Of a DNA stretch of 64,000 nt, positions 1,179 to 43,035 are shown in pieces. Each line of letters starts with the position of its first letter. Position 1 is the stretch's first letter. Source of the stretch: Escherichia phage TH09. The notes beneath the pieces are model-generated. The model did not search any database, had not been told where the DNA came from, and saw only the letters and a list, made by a program, of their open reading frames with translations. The stretch lies in the sequence record MT446387.1; one strand, 5' to 3'. The position numbers and the translations under genes are program-made.

Positions 1179-1208
1179 GTTTACTTTTCCTCTTGACTGT
1201 GGTATAAT
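1179..1208 (+). promoter_or_regulatory. sigma70-type early promoter (GTTTAC-N17-TATAAT)
   Basis: gtttacttttcctcttgactgtggtataat about 28 nt upstream of regB ATG; matches T4 early promoter consensus. Confidence 0.6.
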
Positions 1209-1235
1209 TTTTCTATCAGTTAAGAGGAGAATAAC

Positions 1236-1697
1236 ATGACTATCAATACAGAAGTTTTTATCCGTCGAAATAAGCTTCGTCGTCATTTTGAGTCGGAGTT
1301 TCGTCAAATTAACAATGAGATTCGTGAGGCATCAAAAGCAGCAGGGGTCTCATCGTTTCATCTAAAATATTCTCAGCATCTTCTTGATCGTGCAATTCAA
1401 CGGGAGATTGATGAGACATATGTTTTTGAATTATTCCATAAAATAAAAGACCATGTTTTAGAAGTTAATGAATTCCTGAGTATGCCTCCGCGTCCTGACA
1501 TTGACGAGGATTTTATTGATGGGGTTGAATATCGTCCTGGACGTTTAGAAATCACAGATGGAAATCTTTGGCTTGGATTTACGGTTTGTAAGCCTAATGA
1601 GAAGTTCAAAAACCCGTCACTTCAATGCAGGATGGCAATTATCAACAGTCGTCGTTTACCAGGAAAGGCTTCTAAAGCAGTAATTAAAACTCAATGA
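1236..1697 (+). CDS. regB: RegB site-specific endoribonuclease (cleaves GGAG in early mRNAs)
   Basis: 153 aa, N-terminus MTINTEVFIRRNKLRRHFESEF matches my recollection of T4 RegB; syntenic position upstream of tk. Confidence 0.65.
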   Translation: MTINTEVFIRRNKLRRHFESEFRQINNEIREASKAAGVSSFHLKYSQHLLDRAIQREIDETYVFELFHKIKDHVLEVNEFLSMPPRPDIDEDFIDGVEYRPGRLEITDGNLWLGFTVCKPNEKFKNPSLQCRMAIINSRRLPGKASKAVIKTQ

Positions 1698-1704
1698 GGT
1701 AAGC

Positions 1705-2250
1705 ATGAGAAAAGCACTACTCGCTGGTCTATTGGCCATTTCAATGATGGCACATAGCTCCGAGCATACTTTCAGTAATGTCCAACTCGATAACATGCGT
1801 TACGCGTATCAATTCGGGGAACAGTTTTCTAAGGATGGAAAATATAAAACACACAAAAATATCCACAAGAGCGGATTAGGTCATATAATGGCTGCTATTT
1901 TATGGCAAGAAAGCTCTGGCGGAGTTAATTTAAAATCTAAACCAAAGCATCACGCCTACGGAATGTTCCAAAATTATTTGCCTACTATGCGAGCAAGAGT
2001 TAAGGAACTTGGTTATAATATGACCGATGCTGAAATAAAAAGAATGTTGAATAAACGGTCCAATTCAGCTTCCTGGGCGTACATTGAACTTTCTTATTGG
2101 TTAAATATACATAAGGGCGATATAAGAAAAGCAATATCCTCTTATAATTCGGGATGGAATGTTAAAGCAGGTTCTAAATATGCTTCTGAAGTCCTAGAAA
2201 AGGCTAATTACCTTAAAAATAATAAACTTTTGGAAATAGTAAATGACTAA
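1705..2250 (+). CDS. secreted lytic transglycosylase-like protein (SLT domain)
   Basis: N-terminal signal peptide; SLT-like motifs WQESSG, GMFQ, YNSGWN. Confidence 0.55.
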   Translation: MRKALLAGLLAISMMAHSSEHTFSNVQLDNMRYAYQFGEQFSKDGKYKTHKNIHKSGLGHIMAAILWQESSGGVNLKSKPKHHAYGMFQNYLPTMRARVKELGYNMTDAEIKRMLNKRSNSASWAYIELSYWLNIHKGDIRKAISSYNSGWNVKAGSKYASEVLEKANYLKNNKLLEIVND

Positions 2251-2584
2251 AATTTTGGTTTTATGTATAGGATTAATTTCATTTTCTGCGTTAGCAGATA
2301 CATCATATACTGAAATTAGAGAGTATGTAAACCGTACTGCAGCGGATTATTGCGGGAAAAATAAAGCATGCCAAGCTGAATTTGCGCAGAAATTAATATA
2401 TGCATATAAAGACGGAGAAAGAGATAAATCAAGCAGATACAAAAATGATACACTGTTAAAACGATATGCTAAAAAGTGGAATACCTTAGAATGTTCAGTT
2501 GCGGAGGAGAAAGATAAAGCCGCTTGTCATTCAATGGTTGACCGTTTGGTAGATTCTTATAATCGAGGATTGAGTACTAGATGA
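2243..2584 (+). CDS. secreted hypothetical protein
   Basis: 113 aa with signal peptide MTKILVLCIGLISFSALA; Cys-containing. Confidence 0.45.
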   Translation: MTKILVLCIGLISFSALADTSYTEIREYVNRTAADYCGKNKACQAEFAQKLIYAYKDGERDKSSRYKNDTLLKRYAKKWNTLECSVAEEKDKAACHSMVDRLVDSYNRGLSTR

Positions 2585-3060
2585 TTGTAAAATATATCAA
2601 GGGCGATATTGTCGCCCTATTTCTTCAAGGTAATATTATTGCGCACGGGTGCAATTGTTTTCATACTATGGGTTCAGGTGTAGCGGGTCAATTAGCAAGA
2701 GCCTATCCCAAAATTTTAGAAATAGATAAAACCACTACTGAGTACGGTTCTCGTGATAAATTAGGCGATATGTCTATTGTTTTTAAACATAAACCTAATG
2801 GTTTTGGCATATGTTATAACTTGTATACGCAATACGAACCAGGTCCTAATCTTGATTATGGTGCTTTAGTAAACTGCATGATAGAATTAAATCTACAGGC
2901 AGAAACCCTTTTGTTTAAACCGGTAATTTACATTCCACGCATAGGTTGTGGTATTGCTGGCGGCGATTGGGATAAGGTTTCTAAATTAATCGACATGTTT
3001 ACTCCTGATATTGATTTAATAGTGGTGGATTATGAAAGTACATTACCCGCATCCGTTTGA
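2581..3060 (+). CDS. macro-domain protein (ADP-ribose binding/processing fold)
   Basis: motif IKGDIV...NIIAHGCNCFHTMGSGVAGQL and CGIAGG typical of macro domains. Confidence 0.6.
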   Translation: MIVKYIKGDIVALFLQGNIIAHGCNCFHTMGSGVAGQLARAYPKILEIDKTTTEYGSRDKLGDMSIVFKHKPNGFGICYNLYTQYEPGPNLDYGALVNCMIELNLQAETLLFKPVIYIPRIGCGIAGGDWDKVSKLIDMFTPDIDLIVVDYESTLPASV

Positions 3061-3244
3061 TCCTAAAAACAAAGCAGTAATTATTCGTCAATGGGAACGC
3101 ATTTGCCGTACTAAATGTCCAATTAATAGTCCACATGATGTAGATAAAGACTACATTGGAACATTCGTTGAATATACTTTTATTGATAAGAAAGGTCGTA
3201 AACAACATGTAGAAGAATATTGCTTAAAGGTTACATGGTTATGA
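3032..3244 (+). CDS. hypothetical protein
   Basis: 70-aa ORF overlapping upstream gene end. Confidence 0.35.
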   Translation: MKVHYPHPFDPKNKAVIIRQWERICRTKCPINSPHDVDKDYIGTFVEYTFIDKKGRKQHVEEYCLKVTWL

Positions 3245-3447
3245 GCCAAACTAGTATTCTTAAAAATGCCCACTGTGAAAAGTGTAAGTGGCCTGTTGTT
3301 TTTGCTTTATGCAACGATGAAATGGCTTGTGATTTCGATTATTGGTGCTATTGTTCTAATAAAGGATGCATCAATCATAAAGGTGAAGGATTTTATTCAG
3401 GATTTTATCCTTATCCTGATTTCGTTAAAGAAGGTAAACCAAAATGA
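3241..3447 (+). CDS. Cys-rich putative zinc-binding small protein
   Basis: ATGA stop/start overlap; CEKC...C..C...CYC...C pattern. Confidence 0.4.
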   Translation: MSQTSILKNAHCEKCKWPVVFALCNDEMACDFDYWCYCSNKGCINHKGEGFYSGFYPYPDFVKEGKPK

Positions 3448-3629
3448 ATAATTTTGAGTTACAATACGAAGTGTTACGTGAGCTTGATAATTTAATTGAA
3501 CTCGCTGTTAATAAAGGTTTTGCCATTGGAATCGGTCAAAAAGATACTGGTCATTTAACTATGGAAATATTTAAGCAAAAGCGAATTATTTTAAAACTCC
3601 TGGAAATTAATATATATGAGTCTGAGTAA
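3444..3629 (+). CDS. hypothetical protein
   Basis: 61-aa ORF, ATGA overlap with upstream. Confidence 0.4.
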   Translation: MNNFELQYEVLRELDNLIELAVNKGFAIGIGQKDTGHLTMEIFKQKRIILKLLEINIYESE

Positions 3630-3801
3630 AGAACAAAAAGATAAATTGTTTGAGCTTATCCATGAACTTCTAGATGAGCATATAGAAGCAAACACTTTTT
3701 ATGATGAATACGGCCCGCTATCTCCAGAACAGCAGGAAGAATTTGCTGATCGGTTTGATAAGAAAGAAAACGAATTAATAGCTTATGTGAATACGCTTTA
3801 A
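3616..3801 (+). CDS. hypothetical protein
   Basis: 61-aa acidic ORF. Confidence 0.4.
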   Translation: MSLSKEQKDKLFELIHELLDEHIEANTFYDEYGPLSPEQQEEFADRFDKKENELIAYVNTL

Positions 3802-3810
3802 GAAGGTGAT

Positions 3811-4392
3811 ATGGCGAGTTTAATTTTTACTTATGCAGCAATGAATGCTGGAAAATCTGCTTCTCTTTTGACTGCTGCACATAATTATAAAGAACGTGGA
3901 ATGAGTGTATTAGTTCTTAAGCCTGCTATTGATACTCGCGATTCTGTCTGTGAAGTTGTTTCTCGCATTGGAATTAAACAGGAAGCGAATATTATTACAG
4001 ATGATATGGATATTTTCGAGTTCTATAAATGGGCTGAAGCACAAAAAGATATTCATTGCGTATTTGTAGATGAAGCTCAGTTTTTAAAAACTGAACAGGT
4101 GCATCAATTAAGTCGAATTGTTGATACATATAATGTTCCTGTTATGGCTTATGGATTAAGGACTGATTTCGCTGGAAAATTGTTTGAAGGTTCTAAAGAA
4201 CTTTTAGCGATTGCAGATAAACTTATTGAACTAAAGGCAGTTTGTCATTGCGGCAAAAAAGCGATTATGACAGCTCGATTAATGGAAGATGGAACACCAG
4301 TTAAAGAAGGTAATCAAATCTGTATTGGTGATGAAATTTATGTTTCTTTGTGCAGAAAACATTGGAATGAATTAACTAAAAAGCTCGGTTAG
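3811..4392 (+). CDS. tk: thymidine kinase
   Basis: 193 aa; P-loop AMNAGKSASLL; C-terminal CxxC...C zinc motif; matches T4 Tk. Confidence 0.9.
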   Translation: MASLIFTYAAMNAGKSASLLTAAHNYKERGMSVLVLKPAIDTRDSVCEVVSRIGIKQEANIITDDMDIFEFYKWAEAQKDIHCVFVDEAQFLKTEQVHQLSRIVDTYNVPVMAYGLRTDFAGKLFEGSKELLAIADKLIELKAVCHCGKKAIMTARLMEDGTPVKEGNQICIGDEIYVSLCRKHWNELTKKLG

Positions 4393-4401
4393 TGTAAAAG
4401 T

Positions 4402-42044: not shown

Positions 42045-42677
42045 ATGATTTATTATATGCACAAAAATCCACCGTTTAAATACGGTAAATTTCCTGATGC
42101 ACAATGTTATAATATAACGCCTGATGAAAATAACCGTGGATATCTTATTGGCACAATTTTTGTAATTGTTAAAGATAACGAAATCGTTGCCTGGGCAGAT
42201 TTTAAAGGTACAACATATGATGTTAATCCGGTGCCTTTCACATATTACAATTTAATGGATTTGGCATACGATTATAATTGGTTTAATCATGACACTTTGG
42301 CTCATATTGAAGGTGTAGGATTTGATATTTCATATTCGGAATACACTTTAAGCCCTATGAGTCGAGCCCATAAAGAACCTGAATATTTTTCATTTAGGAA
42401 ACGTGTAAACTTTAAACGCAGCACAGAGTATGTCGGTGGAATATTTGTTAAAGATAATCGAATTACTCGCATTATTTATCCTTTGGGCTGTGGTCAAAAA
42501 GATATTGATGTTAATTTAGACTTTACTGAAAACATCATTAATCATATTGCTTCTGTGTATTTTGGTATCGATCACAAAATTGTAATATGTGGATATGAAT
42601 TACCGTTTGAAGAACAGCCTAAAGTAAAAGTTTCTATTGACGATCAAATTTTTAATGCTTTTATGAATAAAGGTTAA
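42045..42677 (+). CDS. hypothetical protein (61.2-like position)
   Basis: 210 aa; C-terminus SIDDQIFNAFMNKG shared with next ORF. Confidence 0.45.
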   Translation: MIYYMHKNPPFKYGKFPDAQCYNITPDENNRGYLIGTIFVIVKDNEIVAWADFKGTTYDVNPVPFTYYNLMDLAYDYNWFNHDTLAHIEGVGFDISYSEYTLSPMSRAHKEPEYFSFRKRVNFKRSTEYVGGIFVKDNRITRIIYPLGCGQKDIDVNLDFTENIINHIASVYFGIDHKIVICGYELPFEEQPKVKVSIDDQIFNAFMNKG

Positions 42678-42683: not shown

Positions 42684-43035
42684 TAGTTCTGAATTTTCAT
42701 ATTTAAAAATGGAAAAAATTTCATACGATTTTATAGATGAAAAGGTTTATTACAGTTTCCATGAACCGCGTTTTAATAGTGAGGTTGGGTTTATTGTAGT
42801 AAAAGACAATTTCATTTTAAAGATATATTCGGCATTAAAGGATTTTCACTATGAAAATATTAACCTAAAATTTGATAAAGAAAACGTTCGTAATTGTGCA
42901 GTAACAATTACAGGAAATAAAGGTACGTGTGTTATGCTATCTGATGAAATTAATGATTTGCTAAATGATGCAGAAAATATTACTGCGCCATCTATTGATG
43001 ACCAAATTTTTAATGCTTTTATGAATAGAGGTTAA
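42679..43035 (+). CDS. hypothetical protein bracketed by direct repeats
   Basis: 118 aa; C-terminal 14 aa nearly identical to upstream gene. Confidence 0.45.
   Translation: MYSSEFSYLKMEKISYDFIDEKVYYSFHEPRFNSEVGFIVVKDNFILKIYSALKDFHYENINLKFDKENVRNCAVTITGNKGTCVMLSDEINDLLNDAENITAPSIDDQIFNAFMNRG

Follow-up and report, generated by a model that had tools for sequence, protein, structure and literature searches.

The open reading frame (ORF) at positions 2581..3060 (+ strand) of the window, by which we mean the whole 64,000-nucleotide stretch of Escherichia phage TH09 DNA (MT446387.1) analysed here, is a real macro-domain enzyme gene whose match to that fold is well beyond chance, and it is the counterpart of phage T4 gene tk.4/adfM. 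We consider it probable that Tk.4/AdfM of T4-like phages is a stand-alone macrodomain that strips DarT2-added ADP-ribose from thymidines of single-stranded DNA with an active site of the Streptomyces coelicolor SCO6735 type. The identification is correct but already known for T4; what appears to add to published work is the divergent allele present in the window, the glutamine at its catalytic position, and its stand-alone bacterial relatives.

Genomic setting of the gene

The window is a stretch of a Tequatrovirus genome. Its gene order, regB, vs.1, vs, macro-domain gene, tk.3 ... tk, is that of T4, and the macro-domain ORF lies at the tk.4 position between vs and tk.3 (as judged from ORFs and family matches), upstream of tk, so that it is the positional ortholog of T4 tk.4 in a Tevenvirinae genome; no darT adjoins it. 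The preliminary description placed the ORF in an accessory block upstream of tk, and this is accurate: tk (3811-4392, Pfam TK E=6e-61) lies 751 bp downstream with four small ORFs in between. The ORF begins with ATG and encodes 159 amino acids, its coordinates including the stop codon. The stop codon of the vs ORF (2243..2584, + strand) is overlapped by the tk.4 start codon in the sequence ATGA (2581..2584, + strand), a layout that is the same in T4 and is typical of translational coupling, and a putative Shine-Dalgarno motif, GAGGA (2565..2569, + strand), lies 11 nt 5' of the tk.4 ATG. At its other end tk.4 overlaps the start of tk.3 (DUF7202) by 29 nt (3032..3060, + strand), whereas the overlap in the T4 annotation is only 4 nt.

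A consensus scan located 5' of regB a sigma-70-like sequence (1180..1208, + strand; TTTACT-17-TATAAT with an extended TG), a candidate promoter from which the regB-vs.1-vs-tk.4 string might be transcribed early, and the gene order and this consensus match suggest that tk.4 may be expressed early; the total number of promoter-like matches in that scan was not above shuffled expectation. The scan also returned a terminator-like element within tk.4 codons 7-13 (2600..2618, + strand), consisting of an 8-bp GC-rich hairpin and then a weak U-tract. This hairpin appears in the minimum-free-energy fold, and folding of the region 2600-2618 was not significantly better than that of shuffles (z=-1.37). 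In Yersinia phage fPS-2 a "terminator" is annotated at the matching site.

Relationship to T4 Tk.4

BLASTP aligns the window protein with T4 Tk.4 over 155 aa without gaps at 57% identity (E=1e-69), so the homology is full-length. T4 Tk.4, also called AdfM (anti-DarT factor Macrodomain; NP_049723), has 155 aa compared with 159 in the window protein, whose C-terminus is 4 residues longer. The first 14 residues of the two are identical, and both carry the family-invariant residues H22, N25, N80, Y82, Q84, G122, G124 and W130; their diphosphate loops differ, being IGCGIAGGDW in the window protein and IGAGIGKGNW in T4 Tk.4.

The preliminary description suggested that such a protein could reverse host immunity based on ADP-ribosylation, and proposed plating a deletion mutant on hosts that encode DarTG. 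Both the idea and the experiment are already in the literature for the positional ortholog, as follows: T4 tk.4 was the single significant match in a transposon screen (HIDEN-SEQ) on a DarTG2 host, and its clean knockout sensitised T4 to DarTG2, upon which the gene was renamed adfM (2025 preprint, bioRxiv 10.1101/2025.11.20.689424). This anti-DarTG2 phenotype is genetic evidence from a preprint and belongs to the T4 allele only (bioRxiv 10.1101/2025.11.20.689424), and our literature search found no biochemical study of any Tk.4-family protein. In hundreds of T-even-like genomes the gene is labelled "hypothetical protein" or "phosphatase". The practical value of the present analysis is one of annotation: in T-even-like genomes the gene should be interpreted as encoding an anti-DarTG2 factor, and this bears on host-range prediction for therapeutic T4-like phages on E. 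coli, Shigella and Yersinia that carry DarTG2.

Fold and class of the macrodomain

The two sequence motifs on which the macro-domain assignment had originally been based, NIIAHGCNCFHTMGSGVAGQL and CGIAGG, are found exactly, at residues 18-38 and 123-128, respectively, of the 159-aa translation. The assignment is borne out by independent profile, sequence and predicted-fold evidence. The window protein matches Pfam Macro (PF01661) over 116 of the 118 profile positions (2-117) with E=6.2e-8 and 33.1 bits, where the curated gathering cut-off is 22, and it matches PHROG 335 with E=1.8e-71. Its sequence matches in the PDB are Bacteroides BT1257 (1.7e-10), yeast Poa1p (1.2e-9), SCO6735 (8e-8) and DarG (2.4e-5). 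An AF2 model of the protein (mean pLDDT 93.5, pTM 0.89) has the three-layer alpha/beta macro fold, and with it Foldseek retrieved 166 PDB chains at E<=0.001; among the matches listed, the top ones are macrodomains or proteins based on the macro fold. The profile search and structure prediction that had been proposed as checks therefore both recover this fold.

The highest-ranking Foldseek matches are all ALC1-like/TARG1-class macrodomains, with query-normalised TM scores of 0.66-0.76 and target-normalised scores of up to 0.82, and the top 25 consist of TARG1, Poa1p, BT1257, DarG, SCO6735 and TTHA0132 together with designed serine hydrolases. Lower in the list come MacroD/YmdB and coronavirus Mac1, and the PDB profile search gives the same order. 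Both sequence and model thus place the window protein in the ALC1-like/TARG1 class and not among the MacroD or PARG types.

An active site with glutamine in place of lysine

Conservation was assessed in 255 sequences of the family, which has roughly 6,000 clusters. The HGCN motif (codons H22-G23-C24-N25; 2644..2655, + strand) contains N25, the counterpart of SCO6735 Asn27, which is present in 253 of the 255, and H22, present in 247. The NxYTQ signature (codons N80-L-Y-T-Q84; 2818..2832, + strand) is nearly invariant: Q84 and Y82 occur in every one of the 255 sequences and N80 in 254. Q84 lies opposite the catalytic K84 of TARG1 in the profile alignment and, when the window protein is aligned to SCO6735 and BT1257, opposite SCO6735 Q85; PMC9411070 equates this position with DarG K80. 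The diphosphate-binding loop (codons P119-R-I-G-C-G-I-A-G-G-D-W130; 2935..2970, + strand) aligns to PRIGCGLDRLQW in TARG1 and PRIGCGLAGGTW in SCO6735; its glycines G122 and G124 are each present in 253 of 255 sequences, and A126 stands where TARG1 has Asp125.

The window protein therefore has Q84/A126 instead of the Lys84/Asp125 catalytic dyad of TARG1, and the glutamine of NLYTQ instead of the catalytic Lys80 of DarG (xPTKK motif). The glutamine locked by an asparagine that characterises SCO6735 and BT1257 is present, with Q84 corresponding to Q85 and N25 to N27, each of them kept in no fewer than 253 of the 255 sequences. In SCO6735, Asn27 locks the active-site glutamine, and N27S nearly abolishes activity (PMC9411070). 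Two other features of that enzyme are missing: the mobile loop that follows the glutamine and carries Lys89 in SCO6735 has about 3-4 fewer residues and no lysine in the window protein, and S32 occupies the position of Lys34, which is Ala, Ser or Gly across the phage family. K60 is a conserved basic residue of the phage family (K or R in 242 of 255). The preliminary description had named the absence of catalytic residues from an alignment as the point that would speak against the macro-domain reading. The lysine of DarG and TARG1 is indeed absent; since glutamine replaces it, the appropriate standard is the SCO6735-type site, and that site is fully present. By sequence, then, the active site of the window protein is of the SCO6735 type.

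A divergent allele in a mosaic patch

The body of tk.4 in the window is a non-T4 allele that lies in a mosaic patch (2608..3074, + strand) delimited by identities in 60-nt windows. Within the patch these range over 47-82% for T4 and 82-95% for Dhakavirus JS98, whereas in the flanks they are mostly 97-100% for T4 and 38-85% for JS98, the exceptions in the T4-like flanks being two windows of 88-89% in vs, at an indel. The window protein is 94% identical to JS98 Tk.4 and 57% identical to T4 Tk.4. Both allele classes are common: at a threshold of at least 90% identity, 312 phage records have the window type and 224 the T4 type. The diphosphate loop of the window allele, IGCGIAGGDW, is the family consensus, and that of T4 is the atypical one. 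A counter-defence gene is swapped between phage genera as a single-gene cassette, so that nature itself offers a clean test of whether protection is allele-specific.

Probable function and alternatives

The window protein most likely serves to remove ADP-ribose from the thymidines of phage single-stranded DNA. In outline, a small stand-alone macrodomain would be expressed from the regB-vs.1-vs-tk.4 string, whose genes share one strand; the host DarT2 toxin would put ADP-ribose on thymidine bases of single-stranded phage DNA; and Tk.4 would strip it off again, so that the phage DNA would stay replicable and the DarTG2 abortive-infection defence would be defeated. Gln84, held by Asn25, would position the distal ribose for water-mediated cleavage, whereas DarG and TARG1 have a catalytic lysine. 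The activity, its substrate and its timing may be expected to be the same for the 57%-identical allele in the window, although 43% of its positions, diphosphate loop included, differ from the T4 allele that was tested, and this counts against the reading, as do the lack of counterparts to SCO6735 Lys34 and Lys89 and the weak matches to DarG models.

Are thymidine adducts in DNA the main substrate? The protein might instead act mainly on soluble derivatives of ADP-ribose, for example ADP-ribose-1''-phosphate, O-acetyl-ADP-ribose, or immune-signalling or toxic ADP-ribose metabolites. PHROG 335 and the T4 RefSeq entry carry the label "phosphatase; contains A1pp phosphatase motif", and Poa1p, an ADP-ribose-1''-phosphate phosphatase, is among the top matches in both sequence and fold. 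Opposite Poa1p H23 and S30, which are mutated in PDB entries 6lfs and 6lft, the window protein has H22 and T29; H23, S30 and F152 are the Poa1p residues probed in mutant entries, and F152 is left with no mapped counterpart in the C-terminal half, where the sequence alignment is weak. Our literature search found no paper on the Poa1p structure. We judge this alternative unlikely. The "phosphatase" label derives from a motif and not from an assay, and, to our knowledge, T4 tRNA repair (Pnk/Rnl1) yields no Appr>p, which also counts against soluble substrates. In addition, SCO6735, the closest characterised relative of the glutamine type, acts on DNA and protein adducts (PMC9411070), and the sole phenotype reported for the ortholog is DarTG2-specific (bioRxiv 10.1101/2025.11.20.689424).

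It is similarly improbable that Tk.4 works as an antitoxin mimic that binds and blocks DarT2 stoichiometrically, with catalysis dispensable or secondary. In its favour, catalytically dead SCO6735 Q85A still inhibits DarT in vitro, and to a greater degree than mutants of DarG or TARG1 (PMC9411070), and ICP1 AdfB acts purely through DarT binding; moreover, strong allele divergence within near-identical flanks is what a protein-protein interface in an arms race would give. However, the window protein has no counterpart of the C-terminal DarT-binding domain of DarG, and the active-site residues are kept in essentially all of the 255 divergent homologs, among them bacterial proteins with no neighbouring DarT, which argues for selection on catalysis.

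The allele class of the window might also differ from the T4 class in its substrates or targets, being directed at other DarT2 variants or at other ADP-ribosyltransferases that modify nucleic acids or proteins, and might not counter at all the DarTG2 that was tested on T4. The two classes are indeed only 57% identical while both are common, and the swap is limited to the gene body and changes the diphosphate-loop sequence. We nevertheless give this little credence: every family-invariant residue is present in both alleles, it is the window allele that has the consensus loop and T4 the atypical one, and removal of thymidine-linked ADP-ribose should be independent of the toxin that added the adduct.

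Another suggestion of the preliminary description, that the protein modulates the phage's own ModA/ModB/Alt programme, found no support, and reversal or tuning of Alt/ModA/ModB ADP-ribosylation (or RNAylation) of host proteins is hardly credible. T4-like phages do encode three ADP-ribosyltransferases and a phage eraser is conceptually attractive, but Alt and Mod enzymes make arginine-linked ADP-ribose adducts, we know of no macrodomain of this class that cleaves these, members of the family occur widely among phages and bacteria that have no Alt or Mod, and no such phenotype has been reported. The enzymes of this class, SCO6735 and TARG1, cleave ester-linked protein adducts and thymidine adducts (PMC9411070). 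T4 carries Tk.4 and is nonetheless strongly restricted by CmdTAC, so protection against mRNA ADP-ribosylation by that system is also unlikely.

Comparison with known systems

The DarG macrodomain of DarTG2 (PDB 5M31/5M3I; NF048014) is of the same fold class as the window protein (Foldseek E of ~2e-8 to 4e-8, TM 0.70-0.75), and the conserved active-site asparagine is common to both, but the catalytic Lys80 of DarG is glutamine in the window protein, which at 159 aa against 338 also has no C-terminal DarT-binding domain. The substrate implied by the genetics of the T4 ortholog is that of DarG, namely the thymidine-linked ADP-ribose made by DarT2. With the PADLOC DarG model the protein scores 27.7 bits, and with the NCBIfam antitoxin_DarG model 27.7 bits against a cut-off of 250, the macrodomain part alone being matched. 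These weak matches and the absent lysine led us to reject membership in the DarG family; the window protein probably does the same job as DarG from outside it.

PhiKZ gp104 is, like the window protein, a phage-encoded stand-alone macrodomain; also called "AdfM", it removes ADP-ribose from TNTC-modified DNA in vitro and counters DarTG2 (Cell Rep 2026, PMC13309987), so the macrodomain strategy works in phages. It carries a DarG-type lysine motif, FPTKDNW, and scores 132.9 bits with the PADLOC DarG model compared with 27.7 for the window protein. The two are barely alignable (pairwise BLASTP E=0.001 only), and a common lineage was rejected on these grounds; the AdfM name shared by T4 Tk.4 and PhiKZ gp104 hides two independent acquisitions. 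ICP1 AdfB, which binds DarT and has 77 aa, is no macrodomain and so not a comparable precedent for the window protein.

Human TARG1/OARD1 (PDB 4J5R) is the best structural match of the window model (E=3.6e-10, TM 0.72/0.81), and the two share the PRIGCG loop at ~20% sequence identity, with the K84/D125 dyad of TARG1 replaced by Q84/A126.

Among bacterial relatives, we scanned 102 ORFs that flank the best 80 homologs, taking as neighbour, by a heuristic, whichever ORF within 900 bp was the longest in the range of 120-400 aa. DarT was not among the Pfam families present in at least two of these 102 ORFs, a survey in which single occurrences could be missed, and the Pelagimonas homolog is adjoined by housekeeping genes. 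The sampled bacterial homologs are thus not beside darT, and the idea that Tk.4 is an "orphan antitoxin" from a DarTG operon is unsupported. A broader scenario, which we find conceivable but doubtful, is that the two divergent tk.4 allele classes in near-identical Tequatrovirus backbones are not functionally equivalent, having been diversified by an arms race with DarT2 variants (through direct toxin binding besides catalysis) or with other ADP-ribosylating defences, and that the Tk.4 lineage descends from bacterial DNA-repair macrodomains of the stand-alone SCO6735 kind instead of from DarG antitoxins; anti-DarTG2 activity would in that case have arisen in phages two or more times, from different sources and with distinct catalytic chemistries, by a glutamine-type enzyme in T-even phages and a lysine-type one in PhiKZ.

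Close parallels are SCO6735 (PDB 5E3B) and BT1257 (2FG1/2AFC), which, like the window protein, are stand-alone ALC1-like macrodomains and are not encoded beside darT. At 24-29% identity (27-29% in a multi-genus alignment), they share with it, besides the glutamine and asparagine discussed above, a histidine (His22 and His24), a glycine (G124 and G128) and a PRIGCG(I/L)AGGxW loop. SCO6735 frees the thymidine of single-stranded DNA from ADP-ribose and rescues cells from DarT; its hydrolysis depends on Gln85 and Asn27, the Q85A and Q85E proteins being dead and N27S nearly so (PMC9411070). The DNA-binding residues of SCO6735, Lys34 in the first loop and Lys89 in the mobile loop, which are relevant to DNA turnover, are not conserved in the window protein. 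The T-even AdfM family has the glutamine-type site of SCO6735 and would therefore be a natural system in which to test the water-mediated mechanism proposed for that enzyme.

The tk.4 ORF and its neighbors

The macrodomain ORF begins with an ATG at 2581 and its stop codon ends at 3060 on the plus strand, and its 159-aa translation contains both motifs quoted in the preliminary description, NIIAHGCNCFHTMGSGVAGQL (residues 18-38) and CGIAGG (residues 123-128). It shares the ATGA at 2581-2584 with the upstream gene, so that start and stop codons overlap; 11 nt before the ATG stands a GAGGA motif, and at the 3' end 29 nt are shared with the next ORF. It is preceded on the same strand by regB (1236-1697; Pfam REGB_T4, 6e-69), vs.1 (1705-2250; SLT, lytic transglycosylase, domain, Pfam E=1.4e-5) and vs (2243-2584; PHROG "valyl tRNA synthetase modifier") and followed by tk.3 (3032-3244; DUF7202), a 75-aa zinc-binding ORF (3220-3447; Pfam Phage_zn_bind PF23895, E=3e-29; PHROG 2306), two 61-aa ORFs without family assignment (3444-3801) and tk (3811-4392; Pfam TK, 6e-61). 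Because the T4 reference record has tk.4 ("phosphatase; contains A1pp phosphatase motif") between vs and tk.3, the ORF is the positional ortholog of T4 tk.4. Over 1200-4400 the 25 best-matching Tequatrovirus genomes share 98.4-99.3% identity with the window, Shigella phage ESh17 being the nearest.

The N-terminus of the Vs.1 homolog resembles a signal peptide by eye; T4 and most other records label this gene hypothetical. The zinc-binding ORF, between tk.3 and a tk.2-like ORF, has no T4 gene at its place, and its counterpart in the Dhakavirus phage JS98 is orf102, "similar to RB32 ORF111c". A perfect 8-bp GC-rich hairpin, AGGGCGAT-ATT-GTCGCCCT, occupies 2600-2618 (+) within tk.4 codons 7-13, in the T4-conserved part of the gene, with AUUUCUUC directly after it, and may be an attenuator or RNA-processing site; the annotation of Yersinia phage fPS-2 has a terminator at the equivalent position, and an early promoter is predicted there near the tk.4 3' end. 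Upstream of the regB-tk block, a 120-aa ORF (56-418, +) carries a putative glycyl-radical motif at its C-terminus. By comparison with the order of genes in T4 it probably corresponds to vs.6, listed in the T4 record as autonomous glycyl radical cofactor GrcA.

Macrodomain identity

The initial macro-domain call held up in profile, sequence and structure comparisons. The match to Pfam Macro covers almost the full profile (E=6.2e-8, 33.1 bits, curated threshold 22), and PHROG 335, "phosphatase", is matched at E=1.8e-71. PDB sequence searches recovered Bacteroides BT1257 (2AFC/2FG1, ~2e-10), yeast Poa1p (1.2e-9) and Streptomyces coelicolor SCO6735 (8e-8), and more weakly the M. tuberculosis DarG macrodomain (2.4e-5) and human TARG1 (8e-3); with the family profile as query all of these fell between 1e-12 and 1e-20. 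An AlphaFold2 model built from 58 homologs (mean pLDDT 93.5, pTM 0.89) matched TARG1 in Foldseek (E=3.6e-10, TM 0.72/0.81), which ranked TARG1, Poa1p, BT1257, DarG and SCO6735 above MacroD/YmdB and coronavirus Mac1. On these grounds the protein is an ALC1-like/TARG1-class macrodomain.

A divergent allele in a mosaic block

The window protein is 57% identical to T4 Tk.4 without gaps (E=1e-69) and 94% identical to JS98 Tk.4. A sliding comparison of the DNA over 60-nt stretches showed a sharply bordered patch: identities to T4 and JS98 were 88-100% (mostly >=97%) and 38-85% in the upstream flank (1200-2607), 47-82% and 82-95% in the tk.4 body (2608-3074), and 97-98% and 62-72% in the downstream flank (3075-3194). 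The two allele classes are each frequent in sequenced phages: 312 phage records show >=90% identity to the window type, and 224 show it to the T4 type. It follows that this counter-defence gene has been swapped as a single-gene cassette. JS98 itself is ruled out as a recent donor, since its DNA is only ~82% identical over 2531-3447.

The whole tk.3-tk interval (3245-3810) is rearranged relative to T4: its sole BLASTN match is 3615-3792 to T4 tk.2 (68% identity), 3246-3614 gave no T4 match by BLASTN, and tk itself (3811-4400) is 97.6% identical. Mosaicism of the accessory block extends past tk.4.

Distribution and origin

The Tk.4 family comprises 6,172 clusters (50% identity) at E<=0.001 and 1,591 at E<=1e-10; by tblastn it occurs in 2,773 phage records of many genera, and relatives are encoded at no fewer than 500 bacterial genome loci. 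The motif NxY[TS]Q is present in 72 of the best 80 bacterial relatives. Among 102 ORFs flanking bacterial homologs, DarT was found neither among Pfam families occurring in at least two neighbors nor among the PADLOC matches listed, and the Pelagimonas homolog is surrounded by housekeeping genes. The closest relatives in cellular genomes thus seem to be enzymes that, like SCO6735, stand alone, rather than antitoxins of DarTG systems; this reading is provisional because the sampling of neighbors was heuristic.

PF03372 (Endonuclease/Exonuclease/phosphatase) domains occur in 7/102 of these flanking ORFs (loci L012-L091) and ribose-phosphate pyrophosphokinase domains in 3/102; in Vibrio phage Noelle a ribose-phosphate pyrophosphokinase gene lies directly upstream of the Tk.4 homolog. 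Such neighbors could indicate a connection to DNA repair or to PRPP/NAD metabolism.

Probable role against DarTG2

DarT2 ADP-ribosylates thymidines of single-stranded DNA and so blocks replication (PMC11825919). When a T4 transposon library was put on a DarTG2-expressing host (HIDEN-SEQ; bioRxiv 10.1101/2025.11.20.689424), tk.4 was the sole significant hit, and T4 was sensitised to DarTG2 when tk.4 was cleanly deleted. Its authors renamed the gene adfM, saw a structural likeness to the M. tuberculosis DarG macrodomain, and proposed, without biochemistry, that AdfM removes ADP-ribose from DNA. The preliminary description was correct in its finding and good in its interpretation, but the countering of ADP-ribosylation immunity that it proposed, and the deletion test on DarTG hosts that it suggested, are already published for the T4 ortholog. 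Interest now centres on the Gln-type chemistry, on the cassette-like replacement of the allele and on an origin that is probably not from an antitoxin.

A homolog of T4 gp61.2, named AdfA in the DarTG literature as an anti-DarTG1 factor, lies at 42045-42674 (+; 75% identity), with a second, weak match directly downstream (42739-43032; 35% identity to the C-terminal half). Because it is present besides tk.4, the window appears to carry two different anti-DarT genes.

Active site and proposed mechanism

Across 255 homologs, Q84 and Y82 are present in all, N80 in 254, N25, G122 and G124 in 253 each, and H22 in 247. A profile alignment to TARG1 sets Q84 against its catalytic Lys84, and TARG1 Asp125 aligns with A126. 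SCO6735, which strips DarT-made ADP-ribose off thymidine in single-stranded DNA and rescues cells from DarT, has Gln85 at the DarG Lys80/TARG1 Lys84 position (PMC9411070). SCO6735 and BT1257, whose sequences were taken from PDB alignments, were aligned with one bacterial homolog and with phage homologs representing five further genera; in this alignment SCO6735 His24, Asn27, Asn81, Gln85, Gly126 and Gly128 corresponded to H22, N25, N80, Q84, G122 and G124, all six invariant. SCO6735 loses its activity in Q85A and Q85E and nearly all of it in N27S, and G128E is impaired; its proposed mechanism is water-mediated, with Gln85 positioning the distal ribose (PMC9411070). By these alignments the active site is of the Gln type, unlike that of DarG and TARG1.

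We consider it likely, as a whole, that the protein is expressed from the regB-vs.1-vs-tk.4 string and de-ADP-ribosylates thymidine on phage single-stranded DNA. Expression would probably come from this same-strand string, which has a sigma-70-like promoter match at 1180-1208, and its timing we infer to be early. Once bound to ADP-ribosyl-thymidine, the protein would hydrolyse its N-glycosidic bond by means of the glycine-rich diphosphate loop and a Gln84 locked in place by Asn25, restoring replicable DNA.

Similarity to Poa1p and the "phosphatase" label suggest instead the processing of soluble ADPr derivatives, a function argued in general terms by Iyer et al. Stoichiometric inhibition of DarT is another candidate, as catalytically dead SCO6735 still inhibits DarT (PMC9411070), and the target range of the window allele could differ from that of the T4 allele. 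Reversal of the phage's own Alt/ModA/ModB arginine ADP-ribosylation is unlikely given the known linkage preferences of ALC1-like/TARG1 macrodomains. The mRNA adduct of the ADP-ribosyltransferase CmdTAC is probably not a substrate, since CmdTAC restricts T4 although T4 carries Tk.4.

Comparison with SCO6735 and PhiKZ gp104

Relative to SCO6735, the post-Gln loop of the window protein is ~3-4 residues shorter, so that there is no Lys89 equivalent; Lys34 is replaced by S32, and the conserved basic residue is a different one, K60 (K or R in 242/255 homologs). PhiKZ gp104, also called AdfM, freed TNTC-modified DNA of ADP-ribose in vitro (Cell Reports 2026, PMC13309987). Its DarG-type lysine motif FPTKDNW, its alignment to the window protein at only E=0.001, and its PADLOC DarG model score of 132.9 bits (T4 Tk.4, 36; window protein, 27.7) led us to reject a common lineage. 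PhiKZ gp104 and Tk.4 belong to separate lineages, differ in their catalytic residues and converge on one defence system.
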